Of a DNA stretch of 64,000 nucleotides, positions 1,647 to 16,853 are shown piece after piece. A model generated the notes under the pieces. The model saw only the letters and a list, made by a program, of their open reading frames with translations, did not search any database and was not told the DNA's origin. The position numbers were made by a program, and so were the translations under genes. Source of the stretch: Candidatus Endomicrobiellum porotermitis (GTDB taxonomy: Bacteria; Elusimicrobiota; Endomicrobiia; Endomicrobiales; Endomicrobiaceae); assembly GCA_031289055.1 (NCBI GenBank), contig JAITQE010000003.1:26585-90584 (forward strand), given 5' to 3'. Position 1 is the stretch's first letter. Every line of letters begins with the position of its first letter.

Positions 1647-1919
1647 GGGACTAAACTATGAATTTTGCAAATATTTTACATTTTGCTCCCTTTCCTGCCG
1701 TGTTTATGAAATATACTACTAAAATCGTATTCCAAAAAGTTTCCATTCAGTGGATGTCGCTTGAGTTTATAACATAGTGTCCATTTTAACCCGATAAGCT
1801 CAGATCTTGATAAAAATGCTATTTATAAATAAACAAAAAAGTATTTGAAGAAGCAGTAAACGGAAAGGTCGTATAAAGTTAACGAGTTAGATAATAAGTA
1901 ATTTAAAAGGATGTTTATT

Positions 1920-2555
1920 ATGAAAAAAAAACGTTTTAAAAAATTTAGTTGTATAGGTTTTTCAATCTTATTTTTGATGAATTCTGTTCTATTAAGAGCT
2001 GAAGATTTATCAAATGAAGAGATAAAAGAACTTATCTTAATGATTGACGAAATTGAAAGCACAACAGCGGAAGCGGATAGGGCGGCGGTAGAGAAGAAGA
2101 AGCAAGAAGAGTTAGCAAGGATGGAAATAGAAGCCGCAAAAGTAAGAGCGAGAGAAGCTGCGGATAGGGCGGCGATAGAGAAGAAGAAACAAGAAGAGTT
2201 AGCAAAGGTGGAAATAGAAACTGCAAAAGTAAGAGCAAAGAAAGAGGCAGAAGCTGAGAAAGCCAAAGCTGAAACAGAAAAAGCCAGAAGAGAAGCTGAG
2301 AGGCTTAAAGCAGAAGCGAAGGCTCAAGCAAAGGCTGAAAAAGAAAAGTCAAAGAAAGAAATAGAAGAAGCAAAGAAGAAACAAAAGGAAGAAGAAGAGA
2401 GGGCTAGAAGAGAATTTGAAAGACTTAAAGCTGAAGCGGAAAAAGCAAAGAAAGAAGCTGAAAAATTAAAAGCAGAAGCTGAGAAAGCGAAAGTGGAAGC
2501 GGAAAAAGCGGAAGAAGAAGGTCAAGTGTTGTATTTAGGAGTAGAAGTTAAGTAG
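1920..2555 (+). CDS. Secreted Lys/Glu/Ala-rich coiled-coil protein (TolA domain-II-like low complexity)
   Basis: Signal-peptide-like N-terminus KKKRFKKFSCIGFSILFLMNSVLLRAED, then about 170 aa of AEAEKAKxEAE-type helical repeats. AAAAGGA lies 8 nt upstream of the ATG at 1920 (ORF-track start is 1911). Confidence 0.6.
   Translation: MKKKRFKKFSCIGFSILFLMNSVLLRAEDLSNEEIKELILMIDEIESTTAEADRAAVEKKKQEELARMEIEAAKVRAREAADRAAIEKKKQEELAKVEIETAKVRAKKEAEAEKAKAETEKARREAERLKAEAKAQAKAEKEKSKKEIEEAKKKQKEEEERARREFERLKAEAEKAKKEAEKLKAEAEKAKVEAEKAEEEGQVLYLGVEVK
2073..2237 (+). repeat. Tandem duplication, 87-bp (29-codon) unit, 2 copies inside the KE-rich CDS
   Basis: 2073-2159 and 2160-about 2237 align with a handful of mismatches (ADRAAVEKKKQEELARMEIEAAKVRA / ADRAAIEKKKQEELAKVEIETAKVRA). 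Confidence 0.85.
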
Positions 2556-2604
2556 TTAATAAGGCGCGATTTTGCCAAATTGACAAATAAAATTAGGAAT
2601 AAAA

Positions 2605-3273
2605 ATGATGGAGAAACCAAAAAACGTGTTTCTTTATATTTTAGCGTCAATAGCAATCCATATAATAATTTTCTGTTTAATTTTTTATCAGGGAAAAAGT
2701 AGAGAATTACCTGATTTAGTAGAGGTATCGTTTGATTCTCCGAATCCTCTGCCTGATCCTGAGATTCCTACTAGAGAATAACCGAAAGCGCCTGAAATAG
2801 AGGAAGAGCCTGAGGAAATTCCTAAACCGGTGGAAGAAGTTCCTGAGGATGAACCGCCAAAACAGGAGTTGCAGAAAAAGGAAACTTTGAAGAAAAAAAA
2901 GAAGATTGTTTCCAATGAAAAGAGCGATATAAAAGTTGCTGATGAAGATGACGGCGACGCTATAGAGCCTGAAGATTTAAAAGTTGACGCTGAGATATTT
3001 AAATTCCCTCAATATGCAAGAAGCATACAGAAAAAAATAGTCGGAGCGTGGAAATATGATAAGTGGAATAACCTAAGAGTTGAAGTATTCTTTAGAATAC
3101 ACAGAGACGGATCAATTTCCGGCGTAAGAATAAAGAAGTCGTCGGGAAATGCAAGTTTTGATGAGAATGGCGTAAATACTATAATTAAAGCCGCTCCATT
3201 TGACAAGCTTCCAGATGGATTCGGTAACGATAAATTAAGGTTCATATTTGTATTTCAAAAAGGTAAAGTATAA
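2605..3273 (+). pseudogene. TonB/TolA-like energy transducer interrupted by an in-frame TAA (2779-2781)
   Basis: ATG at 2605 gives a TM anchor (VFLYILASIAIHIIIFCLIFY) and a Pro-rich start. TAA at 2779 is in the same frame (frame 1). The Pro/Glu linker then continues (PKAPEIEEEPEEIPKPVEEVPEDEPP), followed by a TonB_C-like domain (YARSIQKKIVGAWKY...GSISGVRIKKSSGNASFDENGVNTIIKAAPF). Confidence 0.75.
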
Positions 3274-3312
3274 ATAAGTTGTAGTGTAAAAATGAAAAAA
3301 GGAGAATGTAAA

Positions 3313-3948
3313 ATGTTTGAAGGAAAAAGTTTAATTGAAATATTAAATATGGGAGGCTTGGTTTTATATGTTCTATTAGGAACATCAATATTATCGCTTA
3401 CCGTAATTTGTTATAAATTGGTCGAATTCTGGAAAAAAACGCAAATAAAGAGAACAACGTTTGTTCCAACTTTGTTTGACAGTATAAAAAATGGCAGCTT
3501 GGAAAAAGCTATAGATTATTGCAACTCTGTCAATTCGCCTATGTCGTCGGTTTCAAAAGCTGGAATAGTTGCTTTTAAATCAGGCGAAAGTTTAGGCGAG
3601 TTCATGGACAGAGAAATAATGATTCAGACAGTAGAATTAGAGAGATACACAACGATATTGGGAACTGTTGGAAATATAGCGGTGTATATAGGGCTATTTG
3701 GAACAGTATTGGGTATTATATCAGCGTTCCACGATATGTCTGCAATAGGATCTGGAGGAATTACCGTTGTTATTGGCGGCGTTTCGGAAGCTTTAATCGC
3801 GACAGCCATAGGGTTGTTTGTCGCAATACCCGCGTCAACAGCTTACAACTTTTTTACAAAGAAAATAGATAAATTTATAGTTGATATGGAATATTGCGCG
3901 TCTGCAATAGAAGACAAATTTAATTTGAATAAGGGAAATAACAAATGA
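3313..3948 (+). CDS. MotA/TolQ/ExbB family proton channel
   Basis: Three TM segments and [13 protein letters not shown] motif. GGAGA lies 8 nt before the ATG at 3313 (alternative start 3292). Confidence 0.85.
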
Positions 3949-4349
3949 GATTAAAAGCGAAGAAAAACACGGTAAAGTCAGAGATAAACATAGCTCCATT
4001 TACTGACGTTGTCTTGGTTCTTTTGATTATTTTCATGATAGCGACGCCAGCGTTAATGCAGTCTAAAATAAATGTTAATTTGCCGAAAGTAGAGTCAGCA
4101 GACAGCGAAAGCGCATCTACAAATATAGAAGCTTTAATATCTGAAGACGGGATAGTAGCTATAGATGGTAAAGAGATAGAATTGTCAAATGTAGAAAAAG
4201 TTATAAGGAATTTACTTAAAGAAGACCCGGGTAAATCAATAGTAATAAAAGGAGATGTAAAAGTAGAGTACGATTACGTTATACAGTTTATGGATAGAGC
4301 AAAAAAGGCAGGAGCAAGAAAATTTGCTCTTGCTGTTGATACTAAATAA
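3945..4349 (+). CDS. ExbD/TolR biopolymer transport protein
   Basis: [18 protein letters not shown] signature. ATGA overlap with the upstream gene. Confidence 0.85.
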
Positions 4350-4451
4350 GTTATTTGCAAATCAAACGTTAACTTAAAAAAATATAAGCAATCTGGCGCA
4401 ATTTTGTATAATATCATAATCGTAAATTTAGCATAGGATTAGGATAAGTTT

Positions 4452-5711
4452 TTGAATTATTTTATTGAAACAATTGGCTGTCAGATGAACGTGTGCGAGT
4501 CTGACAAATTAAGGCTCGCGCTTTCAACTTGCGGAGCTTTAAAAGTAGACGTTTTGCAGGAAGCGGATGTAGTAATACTCAACACGTGTTCCGTTAGAGC
4601 GCAGGCAGAGCAAAAAGCGTTTTCTTTTTTGGGTAGAGCGGAAGAGTTTAAACAAGAAAATCCCGGCGTTAAGATAGTTGTTGTCGGCTGCATGGCAGAA
4701 AGAATAGGTTCTAAAATTAAACGCCGCTTTAAAAACGTTGATTTGATAGTAGGCGCTAAAGATATAGATAACGCCGCCGCCAAAATTGCAGATTTGTGCG
4801 ATATAGGCTATTCTCTTTTGAAGAAAGTTGAAGATTCTTCTTTCAACGTTGTAAGATACGTAACAATTATGCGGGGCTGCGATAATTATTGCTCTTATTG
4901 CGTGGTGCCGTTTGTTAGAGGCGGAGAAATAAGCCTTAATGCTTTAGATATAATAGAAGAATGTTCTTTGGCAGTAAAAAACGGCGCTAAAGAAATAATG
5001 CTTTTGGGACAAAACGTAAATTCTTATAAATACAAGGACGTTAATTTTACTTCGCTGGTAAAAAAAATTACGGAAATCAACGGTCTTGAGCGTATAAGGT
5101 TTATGACTAATCACCCAAAAGATTTGAGCGACGAACTTATAGACGTGATGGCAACGGCTTCTAAAGTTTGTTCGCATATTCATTTGCCAATGCAGTCTGC
5201 GTCTAATAAGATTCTAAAGGCGATGAATAGGAAGTATACTTATGAGCATTATGTCGGCTTAGTAAAAAAATTAAGAGCGGCAGCACCCGACATAAGCGTA
5301 ACAACCGATATTATAGTGGGTTTCCCGGGGGAGACTAAACAAGATTTTGAAGAAACTTTGAAAGCCGTAAAGGAAATAAGATTTGGCGGACTATACGCTT
5401 TTAGATATTCCCCTCGCCCCAACACAAAAGCCGCAAACATGCTTGACGATATTCCTTTGGAAGAAAAAAGGAGGCGACATACGCTAATACTTGAAGAATC
5501 TAATAAGATTTCTGTTGAAATAGTCGCTTCAATGGTTGGCAGCGTTCAACAGGTTTTAGCCGAAAAAATAGAAAATGGCGTTATAGAAGCAAGAACAAGA
5601 AGCGGACGCAAAGTTTTTGTAAAAAATAGAAACGAAAAAGATTTGGGCAGACGCTTAAACGTTAGTATAAAAGAAGCTAAAATAAATTCTTTATTTGGCG
5701 ATATTATATGA
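4452..5711 (+). CDS. miaB: tRNA-i6A37 methylthiotransferase (radical SAM MTTase)
   Basis: UPF0004 N-domain Cys residues (CQMN, NTCSVR, GCMA), radical SAM motif CDNYCSYCVVP, TRAM-like C-terminus. TTG start. Confidence 0.85.
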   Translation: MNYFIETIGCQMNVCESDKLRLALSTCGALKVDVLQEADVVILNTCSVRAQAEQKAFSFLGRAEEFKQENPGVKIVVVGCMAERIGSKIKRRFKNVDLIVGAKDIDNAAAKIADLCDIGYSLLKKVEDSSFNVVRYVTIMRGCDNYCSYCVVPFVRGGEISLNALDIIEECSLAVKNGAKEIMLLGQNVNSYKYKDVNFTSLVKKITEINGLERIRFMTNHPKDLSDELIDVMATASKVCSHIHLPMQSASNKILKAMNRKYTYEHYVGLVKKLRAAAPDISVTTDIIVGFPGETKQDFEETLKAVKEIRFGGLYAFRYSPRPNTKAANMLDDIPLEEKRRRHTLILEESNKISVEIVASMVGSVQQVLAEKIENGVIEARTRSGRKVFVKNRNEKDLGRRLNVSIKEAKINSLFGDII

Positions 5712-6253
5712 ACAAATTTGTAGTTTGGTCTGCGCTGATTCTAGCGGTGTTTTTTCTGGTAAATGTCGAGCATAGAGTAGGGTTATTGGATAAAAAACGC
5801 TATGACGACTATATAAATGAATACTCAAATAAATTTGGAGTAGACGCTCTGCTCGTTAGGTCGGTTATAAAGAGAGAGTCCGATCTAAATCCCGAAGCGG
5901 TTTCTAATAAAGGCGCTGTGGGGTTAATGCAAATTATGCCTAAAACGGCGCGCGAAGTAGCTGTAGAGTTGAGCGTTTCCGACTATTCTTCAGACAAACT
6001 AAAAGATCCTCAAATAAATATAATGTTTGGAGCGTATTATCTAAGAAAACTTTTAGATTATTACAATAACAATCTAATATTGGCTTTGGCGGCGTATAAT
6101 GCGGGAATCGGCAACGTTGACATGTGGCTTAGAGAAATTCCCGACTTATCGGTAAACGCGGAAAAAATGCCTTTTAACGAAACAAAAAACTATGTCAAAT
6201 CTGTAATGTTTATTTATAAAATTCACAAATCCATATCGCAAATAAAAATCTAG
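5708..6253 (+). CDS. Lytic transglycosylase (SLT domain), membrane anchored
   Basis: ESDLNPEAVSNKGAVGLMQIMPKTA and AYNAG motifs. N-terminal TM segment. Confidence 0.85.
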   Translation: MNKFVVWSALILAVFFLVNVEHRVGLLDKKRYDDYINEYSNKFGVDALLVRSVIKRESDLNPEAVSNKGAVGLMQIMPKTAREVAVELSVSDYSSDKLKDPQINIMFGAYYLRKLLDYYNNNLILALAAYNAGIGNVDMWLREIPDLSVNAEKMPFNETKNYVKSVMFIYKIHKSISQIKI

Positions 6254-6262
6254 GTTATATTA

Positions 6263-8836
6263 ATGAATAAAACGCCTTCCGAAAAATTGACGCCGTTAAT
6301 GAAGCAGTACTACGATATTAAAAACAAATATCCGGGCGTGATTTTGTTTTTCAGGCTTGGAGATTTTTATGAAATGTTTGGGGAAGATGCCGCGCAGGCT
6401 GCTCCTGTTTTGGAAGTTGTATTGACAAAAAAAGCAGGCGTGCCAATGTGCGGCATCCCTTATCATTCTGTGAATTCCTATATAAGAAAACTTATAACAA
6501 AAGGATTTAGAGTTGCCGTTTGCGAGCAGCTTGAAGAATCAGGCGCTTCAAAAGGCATAGTGAAACGAGGCGTTACGAAAGTTATAACGCCGGGAACAGT
6601 CTTGGAAGATACGCTTTTAGAGTCGAAAGAAAACAATTTTCTGATGGCTGTTGTTTTTGACGAGTACGCAATCTCTGCGGCTTTTGCGGCTGCCGATATT
6701 TCAACGGGAGAATTTTTTACTTCGGAGACTTCTTTAAAACTTCTTGATACTGAAATATCAAAATATAACCTCGGCGAGCTGGTTATATCTTCCAGCGCTG
6801 TAAAAAATAAACGAATTCAAGATTTTGCAACAAGCGTTAAAGTCCATATTTCGTACGTAGATGATTGTTTTTTTGATTTTGAAAACTCAAAGAAAACAAT
6901 AGTAGAACATTTCGGCGAAAGAGCATTTAAAGAAATCGGATTAAGTCAAAAAGAAATTTTTCGCGCTTGCGGCGCTTTGCTTTCTTATATAAAAGAAATG
7001 CAGCCGCAAAGCGTAGGGATTTTTTCAAATATAAAGTATATAAATAATTCGGATTTTATGTATTTAGACGCGGTTGCCATAAAAAATCTAGAGCTGGTTA
7101 GCTCTTTGGCAAGCGGTAAATTTGAAAATTCTTTGCTCTCAGCAATAGATTCCACCAAAACGCCTATGGGGGCAAGAACAATACGCCGATGGCTTACCAA
7201 ACCTCTCTTAGACGTATCCAAGATAGAAAATAGACAAAATGCGGTAAAATTTTTTATAGAAGAATCGGCTGTAAGGAAAGATATTGTAGAAAAATTTAAA
7301 TATGTTTCCGATATTGAAAGAATAATTGCAAGAACATCATCCGGAACTGCAAATCCAAAAGATTTGTCCGCTCTGAAAGATTCTCTAAAAGTGATAAACG
7401 AGATTTCTAAGATTCTATCCGGGACCAAAGGATTGATTCTTAATATTCCTGACAATATTCAGATTATAGAAAAGATTTCCTCTTACATAGTTGACGAGCC
7501 GTCCGTATCTTTAAAGGATGGAAACGTAGTAAGAAACGGCGTTAATTCTGAACTTGATGAATTAAGGAAAATATCAACCGACGCTAAAGGATTTATATCA
7601 AATCTTGAAGCTAAAGAAAGAGAATCTTCTGGAATAAATAATCTTAAGATAGGGTATACTTCCGTCTTTGGCTATTACATAGAAGTAAGCAAATTCAATG
7701 CGACTTTGGCTCCAAAACATTATGTTCGCAAACAGACTGTTGCTACCGGCGAAAGATATATAACGGACGAATTAAAAGCATTGGAAGAAAAGATACTTTC
7801 TTCTCAGGAAAAAATTCTTAGGCTTGAAAGCGATATTTTTAACTCTTTAAGACAGGAGCTTTCTCTCTATACGTCTCATATTTTAAAGACATCGCGAATT
7901 ATTTCAGAGATAGACGTGTTTTGCGGGTTTGCTTCAAACGCTTTGGAATACAATTATGTCCGTCCAAAAATTTCAAACACTAAGAACCTTTCTATCAAAG
8001 ACGGCAGGCACCCCGTTGTTGAAAGAATATTAAAAAACGGCGAGTTTACGGCAAACGACGTTTCTTTTAACGAAAAATCAAGAATAATGATTCTTACAGG
8101 CCCCAATATGTCTGGAAAATCAACTTATCTTAGACAGACGGCGCTTATTGTAATAATGGCTCAGATAGGATCTTTTGTTCCTGCGTCTCAAGCTGAGATA
8201 GGAATTGTTGACAGAATATTTACGCGTATAGGCGCTGGAGATAATCTTGCGGGCGGAGAATCGACTTTTATGGTTGAAATGGCTGAGACTGCGAATATTT
8301 TAAACCAATATACGCAAAGAAGTCTTATAATTTTAGATGAAGTAGGAAGAGGCACGTCTACATACGACGGAATGTCTATAGCATGGTCAATAATAGAATT
8401 TTTTGCAGACGTTAAAAGAAAGGCAAATGACGGCGCTAAAGTTTTATTCGCGACGCATTACTTTGAACTTACGGGACTTTCAGAAACTCTAAAAGGCGTT
8501 GTAAATTTTAGCGTTGACGTTAAAGAATGGAACGGCGACGTTATCTTTTTGCATAAAATAATTGAAGGAAGCGCCGATAAATCTTACGGTATACATGTGG
8601 CAAAAATTGCAGGTTTGCCTCATCAAGTGATAGAAAGAGCTTATAAGATTTTAAACAGGCTTGAAGCAAATTCCGCATCCGAGTCAAAAGATAATGACCG
8701 CCAAATAGAGTTTTTCCATAACCGTGAACCGCAAGAGCCGCAGATTTTAGTAGAATTAAGGGGCGTTGACATAAATACATTAAGTCCAGTTGACGCTTTC
8801 AATCTTGTTAGAGACTGGAAGGATAAGTGCAGATAA
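6263..8836 (+). CDS. mutS: DNA mismatch repair protein MutS
   Basis: TPLMKQYYDIK, FYEMFGEDA, Walker A GPNMSGKST, DEVGRGTSTYDG. Confidence 0.95.
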   Translation: MNKTPSEKLTPLMKQYYDIKNKYPGVILFFRLGDFYEMFGEDAAQAAPVLEVVLTKKAGVPMCGIPYHSVNSYIRKLITKGFRVAVCEQLEESGASKGIVKRGVTKVITPGTVLEDTLLESKENNFLMAVVFDEYAISAAFAAADISTGEFFTSETSLKLLDTEISKYNLGELVISSSAVKNKRIQDFATSVKVHISYVDDCFFDFENSKKTIVEHFGERAFKEIGLSQKEIFRACGALLSYIKEMQPQSVGIFSNIKYINNSDFMYLDAVAIKNLELVSSLASGKFENSLLSAIDSTKTPMGARTIRRWLTKPLLDVSKIENRQNAVKFFIEESAVRKDIVEKFKYVSDIERIIARTSSGTANPKDLSALKDSLKVINEISKILSGTKGLILNIPDNIQIIEKISSYIVDEPSVSLKDGNVVRNGVNSELDELRKISTDAKGFISNLEAKERESSGINNLKIGYTSVFGYYIEVSKFNATLAPKHYVRKQTVATGERYITDELKALEEKILSSQEKILRLESDIFNSLRQELSLYTSHILKTSRIISEIDVFCGFASNALEYNYVRPKISNTKNLSIKDGRHPVVERILKNGEFTANDVSFNEKSRIMILTGPNMSGKSTYLRQTALIVIMAQIGSFVPASQAEIGIVDRIFTRIGAGDNLAGGESTFMVEMAETANILNQYTQRSLIILDEVGRGTSTYDGMSIAWSIIEFFADVKRKANDGAKVLFATHYFELTGLSETLKGVVNFSVDVKEWNGDVIFLHKIIEGSADKSYGIHVAKIAGLPHQVIERAYKILNRLEANSASESKDNDRQIEFFHNREPQEPQILVELRGVDINTLSPVDAFNLVRDWKDKCR

Positions 8837-8837
8837 A

Positions 8838-10619
8838 ATGCCGATAAATATTCTTTCGCAGGAAACCGTCAATAAAATCGCCGCTGGCGAAGTTGTAGAA
8901 CGACCTCTAAATGTCGTCAAAGAGCTTGTGGAAAACTCTTTAGACGCTTTTGCGTCTTCCGTAACTGTAGAAATAGAAGAAGCTGGTAAAAAACTTGTAA
9001 GAGTTTCCGACAATGGTTGCGGTATGGATAAAAAAGATTTAGAGCTGTCTATATTAAGGCACGCCACAAGTAAAATAGAAAACTTTGAAGATTTATCTCA
9101 TATATGCACAATGGGTTTCAGAGGCGAAGCTCTGTCTTCCATAGCGGCGGTGTCTAATTTTGATGTAAAAACAAGAAAAAAAGGCGAATTATCCGGTTGG
9201 AAGCTTTCAAGCAACGGCGGGAAAAATGTAAGCGTTGTTCCATGTTCAGGGTCGGAAGGAACAATAACCGAAGTCAGAGATTTATTTTTTAATGTTCCTG
9301 CGCGACAAAAATTTTTGAAAAGCGATTCAACTGAGCGTTCAAGAATTATAAGTTCTTTTGAAGAAGCTGCTCTTGCAAATCCGGAAATATCTTTTAAAAT
9401 GCTTTCTGAAAATAAAACTGTTTTTTCATCTTCTAAAACGGACGATAAACTTGAAAGAATTTCAGATATATTAGGCAAGGATTTTGCAAAAGACCTAATT
9501 AATATAAAAATAGAACACCCAAAAGTAATATTGGATATTTATTTTACCGGAAGGGACAATTCTCTCGCCAATAAGAAATTCCAACACCTTTTTGTAAATT
9601 CGCGTCCAGTAAATTACCCTAGGCAACTTATTTATTACGTTTACCAAGCTTACAGGGAGTCTATGCCTCGCGATAGACACCCGGGAATTTTAATCTACAT
9701 TACAATTGATCCTTCCGAGATGGATGTGAACATACATCCTACCAAAAGAGAGGTAAAGTTTGCCGACGAACAAGGCGTATACGACATTATTTACAAGTCT
9801 CTAAAAAATGCTATTATATCGCATGCTCACCCTGAAATAAAAATAAATTCCGAACCGAAAGAAACAGAGATTTTAAGACCGCATACTGGAAGTAATTTTA
9901 AGTATCGACATGAAAAAAGCCGTTCTTTTAGCAATGGCGGCAGCGTTGTCGCTGAGCCAATATCAAAATACAATCCTAAAAATTATTCAATAGATAAGTA
10001 CGCTAACGTTTTTGCAAAGCAACAAGAGTTTGTTTCTGAAAAGTTTGACGAAAATATAAAAGTTTTGGGACAAGCGTTTAACGCATATATAGTTGTTGAA
10101 AATAAAGGCGAGCTGTATATTTTTGACCAACACGCTGCGGCTGAAAGGATAAGATATGAAGTCTATCTTTCTCAGATAAAAGCTCAGTCTTTAAGAGTGC
10201 AGCAGCTTCTTATCCCTGAGACTTTTGACATGTCTCCGAGCGGAGCGTCGGTTCTCAAGGCAAATATTGCTCTGTTTAACGAACTTGGGATAATTGTTGA
10301 AGAGTTTGGTCAAAATGTTTTTAGAATTACCGCCTATCCCTCGTTGCTTGGCAACGTAGCGATTAAACAAATAGTTAAAACTATAGTTTCAGATATAGAA
10401 GAAGATAAAAATGCCGAAATAAAGGAAAAGACGGATAAGATTATCCGTTCCGCATGCAGGTCTAGTATTAAGGCGGGAGACAGCGTGTCTTTTGTTGAAA
10501 CTAAAAAAATGATAAGCGATCTTTTCAAATGCGACCATCCCTTTACTTGTCCCCACGGCAGACCTACGGCTTATAAAATTTCTTTAAACGAACTAGAAAA
10601 ATTTTTTAAGCGGAAATAA
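8838..10619 (+). CDS. mutL: DNA mismatch repair protein MutL
   Basis: MPINILSQETVNKIAAGEVVERP, DNGCGM, GFRGEAL, C-terminal CPHGRP. ATG at 8838 preferred over the ORF-track start at 8790. Confidence 0.95.
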   Translation: MPINILSQETVNKIAAGEVVERPLNVVKELVENSLDAFASSVTVEIEEAGKKLVRVSDNGCGMDKKDLELSILRHATSKIENFEDLSHICTMGFRGEALSSIAAVSNFDVKTRKKGELSGWKLSSNGGKNVSVVPCSGSEGTITEVRDLFFNVPARQKFLKSDSTERSRIISSFEEAALANPEISFKMLSENKTVFSSSKTDDKLERISDILGKDFAKDLINIKIEHPKVILDIYFTGRDNSLANKKFQHLFVNSRPVNYPRQLIYYVYQAYRESMPRDRHPGILIYITIDPSEMDVNIHPTKREVKFADEQGVYDIIYKSLKNAIISHAHPEIKINSEPKETEILRPHTGSNFKYRHEKSRSFSNGGSVVAEPISKYNPKNYSIDKYANVFAKQQEFVSEKFDENIKVLGQAFNAYIVVENKGELYIFDQHAAAERIRYEVYLSQIKAQSLRVQQLLIPETFDMSPSGASVLKANIALFNELGIIVEEFGQNVFRITAYPSLLGNVAIKQIVKTIVSDIEEDKNAEIKEKTDKIIRSACRSSIKAGDSVSFVETKKMISDLFKCDHPFTCPHGRPTAYKISLNELEKFFKRK

Positions 10620-13050: not shown

Positions 13051-14352
13051 GTGCTTAAGCGCGGAAATAAAAAACTTGAACAGATTCCCAAGCTTCCTGG
13101 CGTTTACATAATGCGCGACGGAATAGGAAATATAATATATATCGGCAAGGCTAAGAGTCTAAAAGACAGATTGTCGTCGTATTTCAATGCGGATATAAAT
13201 TCAAAATCGGCCGCTATTATAACAGCCATGCGCAAGATAGATTATATTTTGTGCGCTTCAGAAAGAGAAGCGTTGATTGTTGAAAGACAATTAATAAATA
13301 AGATCAAACCATACTTTAATTCTATGTGGAAAGACGATAAGTCTTACCCGTATATAAAGTTTTCAGCAAGCGAGGATTTCCCGCGTTTAACGTTTACAAG
13401 AAAGAAAATTCACGACGGCTCTTTGTATTTTGGACCATATCCTCAGATTTTTTACATTAAGAAACTTATTCGCTGGCTTATAAAGTTTTTTAAAATTCGT
13501 CTTTGCAAGTTAAACTTTACGCAGCGCGAACTTCCTGAAGAAAAGAAGGTTAAATCTTGCATATACTATCACACGGATATGTGCTATGCCCCGTGTATGG
13601 GTAAGATTACCACTAAAGACTATAAAAATAAAATAAAAGACGTAGAATTGTTTTTGAACGGAAAGTTTAAAAGGCTAGAAGACGATTGGCAAACGCGCAT
13701 GTTTAATTTAAGCGATAATATGCGCTACGAAGAGGCTAAAGAAGTAAGAGATAGGCTCTATGCTATTCAAAATATGTCCGAAAGGGTGATGATTAGCGAA
13801 ATTACTCAAGACGAAATAAACGAATCTGTTCAAAGAGCTGACGGCATAAATGAATTGAAAAGCGTTTTGGGTTTGAAAAACTCTCCTGCCGTTATAGAGG
13901 GTTTTGATAATTCAAATATACAAGGCGCAAATGCCGTCGCTTCTATGGTTAGATTTCACAATGGTATTGCGGATAAAAAAAACTATAGGCGTTTTAAAAT
14001 AAAAACGGTGGAAGGCGCCGATGACTTTGCCACCATGCGGGAAGTTGTTTTTAGAAGATATTCATCGTTAATTAGAAAAAATGAAAAACTTCCCGATTTA
14101 ATTCTAATAGACGGCGGAAAAGGGCAGCTTGGAGCGGCCGTAAGCGCTTTGGAAAAACTTCAAGTTAATACGCCTATAGTTTCGTTAGCGAAAAAAAATG
14201 AAGAGATTTTTTTTCCTACTAAAGACAAAGCTTTGGTTCTAAGCAAACACTCAGAAGCGTTAAAACTTTTGCAGTCTGTAAGGGATGAATCCCACAGGTT
14301 TGCGTTAAATTACCACAGAAAACTTAGAGAAAAAAATTTGTATAAAATTTAA
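13051..14352 (+). CDS. uvrC: Excinuclease ABC subunit C, short form lacking the C-terminal (HhH)2 domain
   Basis: GIY-YIG (PGVYIMRD..IIYIGKA), UVR motif (MRYEEAKEVRDRLYAIQ), RNase H-like endonuclease domain (IEGFDNSNIQG...LILIDGGKGQL...RDESHRFALNYHRKLR). Ends a few residues after that. GTG start. Confidence 0.85.
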   Translation: MLKRGNKKLEQIPKLPGVYIMRDGIGNIIYIGKAKSLKDRLSSYFNADINSKSAAIITAMRKIDYILCASEREALIVERQLINKIKPYFNSMWKDDKSYPYIKFSASEDFPRLTFTRKKIHDGSLYFGPYPQIFYIKKLIRWLIKFFKIRLCKLNFTQRELPEEKKVKSCIYYHTDMCYAPCMGKITTKDYKNKIKDVELFLNGKFKRLEDDWQTRMFNLSDNMRYEEAKEVRDRLYAIQNMSERVMISEITQDEINESVQRADGINELKSVLGLKNSPAVIEGFDNSNIQGANAVASMVRFHNGIADKKNYRRFKIKTVEGADDFATMREVVFRRYSSLIRKNEKLPDLILIDGGKGQLGAAVSALEKLQVNTPIVSLAKKNEEIFFPTKDKALVLSKHSEALKLLQSVRDESHRFALNYHRKLREKNLYKI

Positions 14353-14371: not shown

Positions 14372-16546
14372 ATGAAAATATGGTTTATACGTCGTAAAAT
14401 TTGGCACTTGATAGTAGTAGCTCCTTTATCTTTTGCGATTCTAAAGTCAGTCTCTTGGCTGTTTAATAAAGAAAATTCAATCTATACAATTATATCAATT
14501 GTAATATTCTTACTTATATTGAGTATATGGATACTAATCAGAAGAACTAAAAAGGATACTTCTCAATCATATCCAATGCAAATGCAAGACCAAATTTTTG
14601 CCGACGCGCCTATTACTACAGAAAAAGAAGACATTTTAAATAGGAAAAATTTTGTTGAAAATCTTAAAGATATAATATCTGCCCATCCGCTTGATGAACA
14701 AAGCGTTCGTATATGCATAGATGCAAAATGGGGAGAGGGTAAAACGTCTGTATTTAATTTGTTGAAAGAAAGATTAAAGGAAGAGAAAAATACTATATGC
14801 ATAGATTTTAATCCGTGGTATTACAATAATGAAGAATCGGCTTTAAAAGGTTTGATAAAGTTGTTAGGCAACGCTGTTTCTAATCAGCCTCCATATCCTA
14901 GAGCAAACGACGATATTGATGAGCTTATTAAAGCTATAGCGGGAGGCGCTTGTAATAAATTTTTAGGAATTCCTTTTGGAACGCTGTTTAAAGAAGATAA
15001 AGATATTCAAAAATCGGTAACATCTATTTCAGAATCTGTTAAAAAAACAAAAAAGAAATATGTAATTTTTATAGATGATTTAGATAGACTTGATGCGCCT
15101 GCAATAAAACCCATATTAAAAATGATTATGGTAATGTCAGAAATTAAAAGTCTTATTTTTGTAATTGCAGCAAGCACTGAGCATATTTGTGCTGACGACA
15201 AAATAAGCAAAGAATACGTTGAAAAAATAATGACTGTTATCTTGCCGCTGCCTATTTTTAACCGTATAGAAATAAGAGAATATTTTTGTAAGAAATTTGA
15301 TGAAATAATAAAAGGGGAAAACTTCCCACAAGAAGAAAATAAAATAATAAAAGACAGGATACAAAGAACTTTCTTATCGCTAAAAAAGTTATGTACTTTA
15401 CGCAATATTAAGAGAGTGTTAGAAACATTTAAATTGTTACATAAACCCTTAGCGGGAGAGGTTGATGTTGTAGATTTTATTTTCATTGTATATTTATATA
15501 TATATTTCCCAAAGATAGTAGAAGAGATTTACAAAAATAGATATGAATTTGTTAAAGATTTTTCTCTTCCTGCTAGAGATAAGACAGATAAGACAGCTGA
15601 GGGACGTTTTTTTCAGAAGCGTATGATAAATAAAGAAAATAATAGAAATACTTATTTTGAAGAACTCATAGGTTCATATCCGCGACAAGATGATAAAGAA
15701 GATTTGCAAGTTATTTTATATGCAATGTTTCAAAAATTTAAACTGAGTAAAAGTTATTTGGAAGTTGAATATTGCGAACATCCAAAAAGTATTTATGATG
15801 GAAAATATTTTTCAAAATATTTCCGTTTTTGTATAGATAAAACGGACATTTCAGATAAATTGATAGAAAAATATATTTGTAAATGGAAAGAAAGCAAAAA
15901 CCCAGAGTCTTATATACGCAAAATTTTTATTAAATGCCGTCAGAACGACGATAATATTAATATTTTCTTTAAAAAATTGGACGATAAAAGGGATATGGCA
16001 GGCCCAGAGTTGTTAAAAAAGATAACTAAAGTGTATTCTCTTATTACTAATTATGATAAGTCTTTTGTTGAGTTTATTATTAATAATTTTAGTGGTGATA
16101 AAGTATTTCTTGAAGATATTTTACAAAATATGAAAAGTTTAGTATGTTGTTCTACTCTTGTCGAGCACTTAAAAAATGATTATAATGATTATTATGAAAA
16201 GGTATTTTTAAAAAGATTAAAAGAATTAACTCCCGAACAAATATTAAAGTGTGAAAATTATGATACGAATTTAACACGCGAAATACATTTTATGATATTT
16301 TCATATATAAAAGGATCTGAAGATGTTTTTAGAAAAGAATATGCGCCTATTATAGCGGCTGATAAACGCTTGATTTTAAATTATATGCAACAACAAAGCT
16401 GGACTTTTAGTTTTCTGAATAAGCTGTGGGGAGAAGATAATTATAAAAAAGCTATTTCTTTTTTAGAAAAACAAAACTTGACGGAAGAGGAAGAACAAAT
16501 TTTTAGCGATTTCAAGAAAACGAATGAGAAAGATGCAGATACCTGA
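14372..16546 (+). CDS. KAP-family P-loop NTPase with two N-terminal TM helices
   Basis: Walker A in the KAP form AKWGEGKTS, FNPWYY, Walker B VIFIDDLDR. Hydrophobic helices at about aa 10-30 and 36-56. About 400-aa helical C-terminal region of unknown type. Markedly AT-rich. Confidence 0.8.
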   Translation: MKIWFIRRKIWHLIVVAPLSFAILKSVSWLFNKENSIYTIISIVIFLLILSIWILIRRTKKDTSQSYPMQMQDQIFADAPITTEKEDILNRKNFVENLKDIISAHPLDEQSVRICIDAKWGEGKTSVFNLLKERLKEEKNTICIDFNPWYYNNEESALKGLIKLLGNAVSNQPPYPRANDDIDELIKAIAGGACNKFLGIPFGTLFKEDKDIQKSVTSISESVKKTKKKYVIFIDDLDRLDAPAIKPILKMIMVMSEIKSLIFVIAASTEHICADDKISKEYVEKIMTVILPLPIFNRIEIREYFCKKFDEIIKGENFPQEENKIIKDRIQRTFLSLKKLCTLRNIKRVLETFKLLHKPLAGEVDVVDFIFIVYLYIYFPKIVEEIYKNRYEFVKDFSLPARDKTDKTAEGRFFQKRMINKENNRNTYFEELIGSYPRQDDKEDLQVILYAMFQKFKLSKSYLEVEYCEHPKSIYDGKYFSKYFRFCIDKTDISDKLIEKYICKWKESKNPESYIRKIFIKCRQNDDNINIFFKKLDDKRDMAGPELLKKITKVYSLITNYDKSFVEFIINNFSGDKVFLEDILQNMKSLVCCSTLVEHLKNDYNDYYEKVFLKRLKELTPEQILKCENYDTNLTREIHFMIFSYIKGSEDVFRKEYAPIIAADKRLILNYMQQQSWTFSFLNKLWGEDNYKKAISFLEKQNLTEEEEQIFSDFKKTNEKDADT

Positions 16547-16853
16547 AAATATTATTAAGAAAATGAGTAAATATCCAGCTTTTTATGTTAAAGTTTGGAC
16601 TGCTTGCTTTAACATACCTGCGGGTAAAACGTTGACCTATAAACAGATTGCGGAAAAAATAGGCGCGCCGAAAGCCGCGAGAGCCGTAGCTTTAGCGCTG
16701 TCAAAAAATCCGTTTGCTCCCATAATTCCTTGTCATAGAGTTATAAGAAGCGATGGAAAACTTGGCGGCTATTCCGCCTACGGCGGAATAAAGAAAAAAT
16801 TGGAAATGATTAAATACGAGACAGAAACAGGAAAAGACGCTTCATTGGATTAA
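16524..16853 (+). CDS. MGMT/Ogt-like methylated-DNA-protein-cysteine methyltransferase (C-terminal DNA-binding/active-site domain only)
   Basis: IPAGKTLTYKQIAEKIGAPKAARAVALALSKNPFAPIIPCHRVI contains the PCHRV active site. The true start may be the ATG at 16563. Confidence 0.8.
   Translation: MRKMQIPENIIKKMSKYPAFYVKVWTACFNIPAGKTLTYKQIAEKIGAPKAARAVALALSKNPFAPIIPCHRVIRSDGKLGGYSAYGGIKKKLEMIKYETETGKDASLD

Follow-up and report, generated by a model that had tools for sequence, protein, structure and literature searches.

The window analyzed here is a 64,000-nt stretch of Candidatus Endomicrobiellum porotermitis, an Endomicrobiaceae endosymbiont (assembly GCA_031289055.1, contig JAITQE010000003.1, positions 26,585 to 90,584 of the forward strand). 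Between uvrC and ogt it carries an intact gene for a KAP-family P-loop NTPase, referred to here as the KAP gene. Profile and structure searches place its product, with high confidence, in the PifA-like branch of these NTPases, and comparison with related genomes identifies the gene as an accessory cassette. We consider it probable, although well short of firm, that the cassette encodes a single-gene, membrane-anchored anti-phage or anti-plasmid protein of the PifA/KAP type. The parts of the gene, followed by its flanks, were assigned from the open reading frame (ORF) list and the analyses given in parentheses:

14372..16546, + strand: KAP/PifA-like NTPase gene, intact, ATG start, 724 aa (ORF list, Pfam, PADLOC, AlphaFold2)
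14399..14536, + strand: N-terminal transmembrane (TM) hairpin, aa 10–55, a predicted anchor and possible effector (hydropathy peaks, AlphaFold2 helices)
14627..15556, + strand: KAP P-loop NTPase core and helical lid, aa 86–395, with no TM insertion (Pfam, AlphaFold2, Foldseek)
14723..14749, + strand: Walker A, AKWGEGKTS, aa 118–126 (sequence reading, homologue alignment)
15062..15088, + strand: Walker B, VIFIDDLDR, aa 231–239 (sequence reading, homologue alignment)
15557..16012, + strand: helical region after the NTPase, common to PifA-like proteins, aa 396–547 (hhalign, PADLOC PifA profile)
16013..16543, + strand: family-specific, all-helical C-terminal region, aa 548–724, a putative sensor or interaction module (beyond the hhalign match)
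16303..16314, + strand: 12-nt in-frame indel polymorphism between the window and locus L001 (comparison of near-identical assemblies)
13051..14352, + strand: uvrC, left flank, 433 aa (TIGR00194, 8.8e-121)
14335..14352, + strand: cassette-linked 3' tail of uvrC, ...NLYKI plus stop (junction alignments)
16524..16546, + strand: 23-nt overlap of the KAP 3' end and the ogt start, with the KAP stop at 16544–16546 (ORF list)
16524..16853, + strand: ogt, right flank, methylated-DNA-protein-cysteine methyltransferase (PF01035, 1.6e-30; TIGR00589, 7.9e-27)

The 724-aa protein begins with two hydrophobic stretches, one weak (aa 10–28, Kyte-Doolittle score 1.68) and one strong (aa 37–55, 2.83). A first-pass annotation of the window, made from the sequence alone, had described both as helices, and the hydropathy profile and AlphaFold2 agree, the latter modeling them as a helical hairpin (H2–32 and H36–61). 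Because basic residues lie on both sides of the hairpin (MKIWFIRRK... before, ...IRRTKKD after), an N-in/C-in anchor with a cytoplasmic NTPase is predicted. The hairpin is kept in the related copy L003 and, with an upstream in-frame start, in L002. By hydropathy and AlphaFold2, TM-grade helices occur only at aa 10–55; none is inserted within the NTPase domain, and amphipathic helices make up the stretch from Walker A to Walker B (aa 154–225). The full-length model has a mean predicted local distance difference test score (pLDDT) of 85.2 and a predicted template-modeling score of 0.78, with strands of the NTPase core at residues 112–117, 141–146, 229–234, 261–267, and 289–292. All three KAP motifs of the earlier annotation were recovered, the Walker motifs as listed and FNPWYY at aa 146–151, and every column that is invariant in an alignment of 59 homologues is kept (W120, G121, G123, K124, W149, D235, D238, R239, and K285). 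A YF.(K/R)YF...D.SD motif is conserved after the NTPase, within the helical region shared with PifA. The architecture is thus a TM hairpin, a disordered linker, a KAP NTPase whose motifs are catalytically intact, PifA-shared helices, and a family-specific helical C-terminus of ~180 aa.

Assignment to the KAP family is supported by Pfam KAP_NTPase (PF07693), which matches aa 91–357 over profile positions 1–290 of 293 (E=3.7e-32; 112.2 bits against a cut-off of 20). The best PADLOC match is PifA (PDLC02361, 3.3e-35), with aa 190–528 on profile positions 147–479, and further PADLOC matches to QatA and PDC-S20 cover the P-loop region only. The same PifA profile gives 963 bits over positions 2–718 for PifA itself and 120 bits, ending at 479, for the window protein. 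BLASTP against the PifA of the F plasmid (L054:12449-14671, minus strand, directly downstream of pifC) aligned aa 70–382 at 20% identity (E=4e-15). When a profile of the close family (A3) was compared by hhalign with a profile of PifA and soluble PifA-like proteins (A6), aa 72–547 aligned with template positions 5–479 of 731 over 441 columns (probability 100%, E=8e-45). The match ends at aa 547, which leaves the TM hairpin and the last ~180 aa as the sole parts without PifA homology. The first-pass annotation had left about 400 C-terminal residues without a nameable domain. This holds for the last ~180 aa, but PifA-like proteins align as far as residue 547. Likewise, its proposal of an orphan defense candidate stands as far as a defense-family match goes (PADLOC and hhalign), but the protein is not an unclassifiable orphan.

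The last ~180 aa appear to be restricted to this family. A phmmer search with aa 380–724 against 1.84 billion cluster representatives returned seven matches, all from the same family: one near-identical L001 allele, the rest shorter fragments or a truncated copy. A separate AlphaFold2 model of aa 396–724 had a mean pLDDT of 76, and Foldseek of this model against the PDB gave nothing significant (best E=0.11), the weak matches being helical-repeat or solenoid proteins. No enzymatic fold was detected in the C-terminus by Pfam or by Foldseek against the PDB, and a search of solved structures by sequence yielded no match for it. With the full-length model, Foldseek recovered ORC/Cdc6-type ATPases, the archaeal ATPase 2qen, and RdrA at E ~1e-4 through the ATPase fold, and a viral structure library returned generic KAP and AAA+ proteins only.

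Two architectures recur among the homologues. One is soluble and ~715–730 aa long and, like PifA, has Walker A near residue 49; the second is 810–900 aa long with three to four N-terminal TM helices and includes the best matches outside the close family (P0005–P0008). In a TM scan of the 60 nearest homologues, about a third had three to four N-terminal TM helices. An N-terminal rather than inserted TM pair, which had been remarked on as unusual, is therefore not so. P0001 is an allele of the window protein that is 4 aa shorter. A metagenome scan with the single protein found no close copies, and one with a four-sequence alignment found distant KAPs only. Among 50,697 phage records there was one weak match; 153 plasmid records matched.

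PifA is the F-plasmid protein that excludes phage T7, and the window protein resembles it in having a KAP P-loop NTPase followed by ~150–190 aa of homologous helices with the YF.(K/R)YF...D.SD motif. The two are similar in total length (724 aa in the window, 741 aa for PifA), and each is a single polypeptide with no separate enzymatic effector domain. PifA also has no TM insertion in its NTPase domain. Insertions of two or four TM helices are found in eukaryotic and some bacterial KAPs but not in all, and their lack in the window protein does not exclude it from the family. T7 exclusion by the Pif system is set off by gp1.2 or gp10, and Schmitt and colleagues reportedly found in 1991 that, when T7 infects, PifA brings on a lesion in membrane permeability; their work and that of Cheng and colleagues in 2004 are said to place its action at the membrane. 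KAP proteins were reportedly described by Aravind and colleagues in 2004 as sporadic in distribution, horizontally mobile, typically plasmid-borne, and often pseudogenized; the pattern of the window KAP, set out below, matches this in being sporadic, mobile, and pseudogene-prone.

Also similar are four single-gene proteins, each a KAP NTPase with a region of unknown function, that block phage (PLoS Biol 2026, PMC13552941). Experiments in 2025–2026 showed that proteins of this build block phage (PMC13552941), which weakens the description of KAP NTPases as mostly uncharacterized in the earlier annotation. The window protein fits the architecture of these antiphage proteins, being a KAP domain fused to a C-terminus that matches no Pfam domain or PDB structure, with core genes on both flanks (PMC13552941). 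Defense by one of them, EF_KAP, needs Walker B and the C-terminal region, and the substitutions D246A and D247A abolish it (PMC13552941). Compared by published description only, EF_KAP and the window protein are both single genes with an N-terminal TM segment and a KAP NTPase; Walker B lies near residue 240 in each (D246/D247 in EF_KAP, D235/D236 in the window), and proteins of the EF_KAP type likewise have a C-terminal region of ~320–330 aa for which neither a known domain nor a structural match exists. EF_KAP differs in having its second TM helix inside the NTPase domain, whereas both helices of the window protein are N-terminal, and in its link to a small serine recombinase; no recombinase lies near the window KAP.

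Other KAP proteins are more distant. Outside the close family, homology is closest to the 810–900-aa proteins (P0005–P0008, P0015–P0017, and others), at 22–27% identity (E 1e-37 to 1e-24). They too have an N-terminal TM module before the P-loop and match the PifA profile over ~560–620 positions, but with three to four TM helices and Walker A at 155–220, against two helices and Walker A at 120 in the window protein, and their C-termini have no detectable relation to its last ~180 aa. QatA is similar in its N-terminal part, which holds the KAP P-loop (NCBIfam NF041923, 1.3e-12, aa 86–189), but the equivalog score is 47.2 bits against a cut-off of 600 and covers the N-terminal 100 aa only, and the window locus has no qatBCD. 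RdrA of the RADAR system is a structural match over the ATPase fold only (Foldseek E=3.3e-4, template-modeling scores 0.33/0.29), and no RdrB adenosine deaminase was found in the KAP neighborhood. The window protein is neither QatA nor RdrA.

At the locus, the KAP gene follows uvrC after a 19-nt spacer, and its 3' end overlaps the longest Ogt frame, which starts at 16524, as had been noted earlier. No + strand terminator-like site occurs at the KAP boundaries; between 8000 and 19500 such matches are as many as expected from shuffled sequence, and the sole one on the + strand lies within uvrC. The spacer, the overlap, and the lack of a boundary terminator place KAP inside a co-directional string, mutS-mutL-miaA-murJ-uvrC-KAP-ogt, and transcription probably reaches it from the repair genes upstream, with its translation coupled to that of ogt. 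It had been proposed to be a single gene, and indeed no partner genes were found at the locus, uvrC and ogt being core genes; the window ORFs beside the cassette include no toxin-antitoxin partner or recombinase. The description of uvrC as truncated does not hold. UvrC is 426–447 aa in every Endomicrobiaceae locus examined, with or without KAP, and 433 aa is the normal short form of the lineage, neither decayed nor cut by KAP. Purifying selection on uvrC is strong, with a ratio of nonsynonymous to synonymous divergence (dN/dS) of 0.05 between the window and L003 and a branch ratio (omega) of 0.08 on the window branch.

The short UvrC is an observation in its own right. In the window and in L002–L044, and apparently also in two Omnitrophota genomes, the C-terminal part found in the canonical ~600-aa form is missing (family models end at ~511–534), as are ~90 middle residues, and the protein is still strongly conserved.

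A UvrC scan with one genome per species covered about 45 loci of Endomicrobiaceae (termite-gut Elusimicrobiota, many of them flagellate endosymbionts) as well as outgroups, and the content of the uvrC-ogt slot was read by tblastn with nine window proteins and by ORF inspection. In most genomes uvrC is directly followed by ogt, with a gap of 15–116 nt, and uvrC is also next to ogt in two Omnitrophota. KAP or its remains were found only in this slot, at 10 loci in nine lineages; two lineages have intact copies, in two the copy runs off a contig end, and in the other five it carries frameshifts or deletions or survives as a stub:

Window and L001: intact; the same strain, with 0 mismatches in 22 kb
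L002: intact, 52% identity, ~746–752 aa with the upstream start
L004: first ~28 codons only, then the contig end
L059: KAP C-terminus at a contig edge, then a decayed ogt
L003: frameshifted, 559 + 221 aa
L060: frameshifted
L009: 1.4-kb multi-frame pseudogene
L005: internal deletion of aa ~143–650
L007: 60-aa C-terminal stub

A further 1.9-kb contig with no flanks (L055) contains a KAP gene with an in-frame stop and a frameshift. In a neighbor-joining tree of MurJ and UvrC, the carriers form two sister clades with cleanly empty genomes interspersed: L006 is almost the same as L003, L008 pairs with L007 as its sister, and all four genomes closest to L002 are empty. The gene is missing from most relatives, as expected for the accessory rather than core status first proposed.

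In a basal, putatively free-living Endomicrobium clade the slot is filled by a ~713–720-aa histidine kinase with 7TM (HisKA_7TM), GAF, and HATPase domains (L016:10802-12958, L017:11385-13535, L019:11269-13428, L020:6706-8868, L022:2464-4605, L030:11287-13434, and L037:11275-13428; Pfam was run on L016, L019, and L030 only). This ORF of ~718 aa was considered as a distant KAP and rejected, the kinase being unrelated. Three states of the slot are thus seen: kinase, empty, and KAP.

The same data bear on whether the NTPase might work at the membrane with UvrC or Ogt, in their regulation or localization, and not in defense. Its position on the strand and in the string of the repair genes, with a short spacer, an overlap, and no terminator between, would suit such a role, as would its occurrence in the same slot wherever it is found. 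Yet uvrC and ogt adjoin without KAP in most Endomicrobiaceae and in the two Omnitrophota genomes, basal relatives have the unrelated kinase in its place, KAP has been lost repeatedly while both neighbors are conserved, and Pfam, NCBIfam/TIGR models, and Foldseek detected no repair-related domain. We regard a repair-associated function as extremely improbable.

Several loci vary in other ways around the slot. In L027 uvrC is followed directly by an AAA_14/DUF4143 ATPase (8541–9905), and no ogt was found at this locus. In L059 (595–737) ogt is reduced to out-of-frame fragments right after the KAP C-terminus. L060 carries a HepT/NTase_sub_bind and Pol-beta nucleotidyltransferase pair of the HEPN-MNT toxin-antitoxin type between ogt and a CpXC gene (1241–1967), so variability extends to the stretch immediately downstream of the slot. 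In L003, where KAP is frameshifted, mutS is split into three ORFs (1896–4467) and mutL into two (4446–6256); both are intact in the window (6263–8836 and 8790–10619), and mismatch repair in L003 seems to be decaying.

The uvrC end carries a mark of the cassette. All eight KAP-bearing or remnant loci with a visible uvrC end, from both clades, share the tail ...HRKLREK(S/N)LY(K/E)(I/S)*, which occurs in none of 28 other loci, the clade-mates of L002 included. This distribution indicates that the cassette arose once, entering the uvrC-ogt junction in flagellate-endosymbiotic Endomicrobiaceae together with the last ~5 uvrC codons. A search for mobile-element signatures or terminal repeats at the cassette ends found only AT-rich chance repeats.

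Whole alleles at the slot are exchanged between lineages by homologous recombination, and the direct case is L006, which changed from filled to empty. L006 and L003 are 99–100% identical for more than 1 kb on each side, with identity falling to 0.77 in ~100 nt by the junction on both sides, and L006 has no counterpart of the 2.3-kb KAP pseudogene of L003 (L006:11250-11380 against L003:9960-12340). Their sequences match as far as a point ~11 codons short of the uvrC stop and match once more from about codon 16 of ogt onward. Between those points L006 has the ~130-nt "empty" haplotype of L008 and L010, with the uvrC tail HRHLR... and the ogt start ...ATACCAAAAGATATTATTA. A simple deletion was rejected, since it would have left the flanks unaltered, and the retained flanks carry the foreign haplotype on both sides; L006 is therefore an allelic replacement. 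We hold the cassette status of KAP with high confidence. Genes for competence and recombination persist in Endomicrobium endosymbionts and are expressed there (PMC8809381). The window itself has, at 19000–20069, a pilin-like 136-aa ORF followed by an intact A24 prepilin peptidase, components of a kind linked to natural competence in Endomicrobium (PMC8809381).

Exchange of this kind raises the question of a selfish or addictive cassette that spreads by transformation-mediated recombination, its NTPase excluding competing DNA or punishing loss. Whole-allele exchange at the slot, KAP synonymous divergence below that of the flanks (described below), which is consistent with lateral spread, and the matching plasmid records all point that way. 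The cassette, however, has no toxin-antitoxin partner, recombinase, or terminal repeats, the sole resolved exchange removes it instead of spreading it, and the ranking of KAP distances follows the species topology. On balance this explanation is very unlikely.

Base composition is a further sign of accessory status, as is the low fourfold-site divergence described below. Among window ORFs of at least 120 aa (n=51; mean G+C 37.3%, standard deviation 3.0), the KAP gene has the lowest G+C (28.5%, z=-2.9), with third-position G+C at 22.4% (z=-3.05). The locus in L002 is similar at 28.4%. The hand counts of the first-pass annotation on two lines of the gene and one of uvrC (20.0%, 25.0%, and 46.7%) were exact. 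AT drift under relaxed selection was considered as the cause and found insufficient for the window copy, since the non-coding DNA of the window is at 35.2% G+C, above KAP; dead KAP copies are lower still (21% in L009), and drift contributes in those copies.

The PifA/KAP-type defense reading brings these observations together. By analogy with PifA and the single-gene KAP defense proteins, the window protein would be an exclusion factor for phage or foreign DNA. The helical C-terminal array would recognize an invader protein or a membrane-proximal event, the KAP domain would couple recognition to NTP binding and hydrolysis, probably with oligomerization, and the output would be delivered at the inner membrane through the TM hairpin, as permeabilization or as a block of DNA entry or egress. 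The hairpin is the only candidate effector because no other effector domain is present. On these analogies we have moderate confidence in the defense role and low confidence in a membrane output through the hairpin. The family is known, and the cassette would add another member to it, a plausible but ordinary-class defense gene.

Several observations weigh against this reading. The window protein and PifA are only 20% identical, PifA has no predicted TM helix where the window protein has its hairpin, and the C-termini, the last ~180 aa of the one and ~250 aa of the other, do not align. In F, pifC directly precedes pifA, whereas uvrC is upstream of the window KAP, and the Pif system belongs to a plasmid context, whereas the window KAP is chromosomal and syntenic across genomes between uvrC and ogt. 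It cannot be called a Pif system, since pifC and a plasmid context are both missing and the C-terminal third shows no homology. No neighboring defense genes occur within the window, hence there is no defense-island context. Abortive infection is reportedly not how EF_KAP acts (PMC13552941), and a permeabilization step borrowed from PifA is therefore speculative. The remaining difficulties concern selection. By the Nei-Gojobori method, KAP dN/dS for the window is 0.66 against L002, 0.74–0.76 against L003, and 1.37 against L055, while flanking genes give 0.05–0.18. Within the gene, dN/dS is near 1 on all branches, that of the window included. When changes were polarized with outgroups, the window terminal branch had 10 synonymous and 40 nonsynonymous changes (omega ~1), compared with omega 0.08–0.21 for mutL, miaA, murJ, and uvrC under the same scoring with L004 as sister. 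Relative to L002 and L003 the window protein lacks ~16–25 aa in its C-terminal domain, and one of the three indels that separate the window from L001 is the 12-nt indel at this same spot, so in-frame deletions appear to be accumulating there. Most orthologues are dead, and the window copy may already be under relaxed selection. The intactness of the gene, taken at first as an argument for selection, is weak evidence only, given broken copies in five of nine carrier lineages and the dN/dS within the gene.

Part of the high dN/dS may reflect its denominator. KAP dN against L002 (0.31) is only slightly above that of mutL and miaA (0.27), and the anomaly is a low dS: differences at fourfold sites are two to three times lower in KAP than in the flanks (0.27 against 0.58–0.66 for L002; 0.14 against 0.31–0.55 for L003). 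Compositional saturation was rejected as the cause, because at saturation the proportion of synonymous differences would reach ~0.82 for this codon usage, against 0.35 observed. A mutation rate that is lower at this locus was also rejected, as dead copies in close pairs diverge at 0.76–0.96 of the fourfold rate of the flanks. If KAP alleles had spread laterally once the lineages were separate, the low dS and the un-ameliorated G+C would both be accounted for, but KAP distances still follow the species topology. The low synonymous divergence could reflect lateral allele spread or methodological bias.

Stop codons offer a separate measure. Of the possible substitutions in the KAP gene, 5.85% create a stop, so the ~81 substitutions estimated for the window branch would be expected to yield ~4.7 stops under pure neutrality and the ~260 on the L002 branch ~15, and both ORFs are open. 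This arithmetic points to past selection on the gene, although the evidence overall is mixed.

Decay is plain in the other lineages, and the cassette is evidently eroding in most of its carriers. The window copy might then be a relic, its function lapsed and its ORF open only because too little time has passed. The frameshifts, large deletions, and stubs elsewhere are what such an account expects, as are the near-neutral divergence of the dead copies, the omega of ~1 on the window branch beside strongly constrained flanks, the residues lost from the C-terminal domain, and the indel between near-identical strains. Defense systems are known to decay in this lineage: restriction-modification and CRISPR systems decay rapidly and randomly in these symbionts (PMC5174739), and KAP decay follows the same pattern. 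KAP is mentioned neither in that study (PMC5174739) nor in a 2024 comparative study of these genomes. Set against the relic account are the probability of ~0.01 that the window ORF would have stayed open, before frameshifts are counted, the still larger number of stops expected for L002, the retention of all invariant catalytic residues and of the TM hairpin, and the fact that both indels seen are in frame; omega, moreover, may be inflated by the anomalously low dS. We judge a relic unlikely, but with a substantial minority chance.

A more far-reaching version of the defense reading is unlikely. In it, the uvrC-ogt junction of flagellate-endosymbiotic Endomicrobiaceae would be a fixed slot whose filled and empty alleles are shuffled by natural transformation among obligately intracellular lineages that have otherwise diverged, maintaining a presence/absence immune polymorphism despite genome reduction. 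KAP would be a self-contained sensor, switch, and membrane effector of a minimal PifA type, with the TM hairpin as sole output and a C-terminal array evolving fast as it tracks invader proteins.

Two other regions of the window deserve mention. A family-4 glycosyltransferase of the MraY/WecA-like type is split between 21445–22017 and 22027–22479 (profile positions 3–108 and 121–157) and is probably a pseudogene, which agrees with the earlier remark that some genes near KAP are decayed; the copy in L003 is called as a single 336-aa product. At 1911–2555, upstream of a MotA/ExbB-family gene (3292–3948), lies a 214-aa ORF rich in E, K, and A, with tandem repeats of 87 nt (x1.9) and 21 nt (x4) and no Pfam match. 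The strong purine skew at 2–3 kb is due to this repeat ORF.

If active, the KAP protein would be a compact, membrane-anchored, PifA-related single-gene defense candidate from Elusimicrobiota, where to our knowledge no such candidate has been tested, and a further case for how KAP NTPases couple sensing to membrane output. The main interest is evolutionary rather than mechanistic. Across a small number of genomes the locus displays several stages in the history of an accessory gene as an endosymbiont genome shrinks: one insertion event, copies still open in two lineages, frameshifts, an internal deletion, a stub, and clean allelic removal. The replacement in L006 is direct sequence evidence that these intracellular symbionts still exchange chromosomal alleles.

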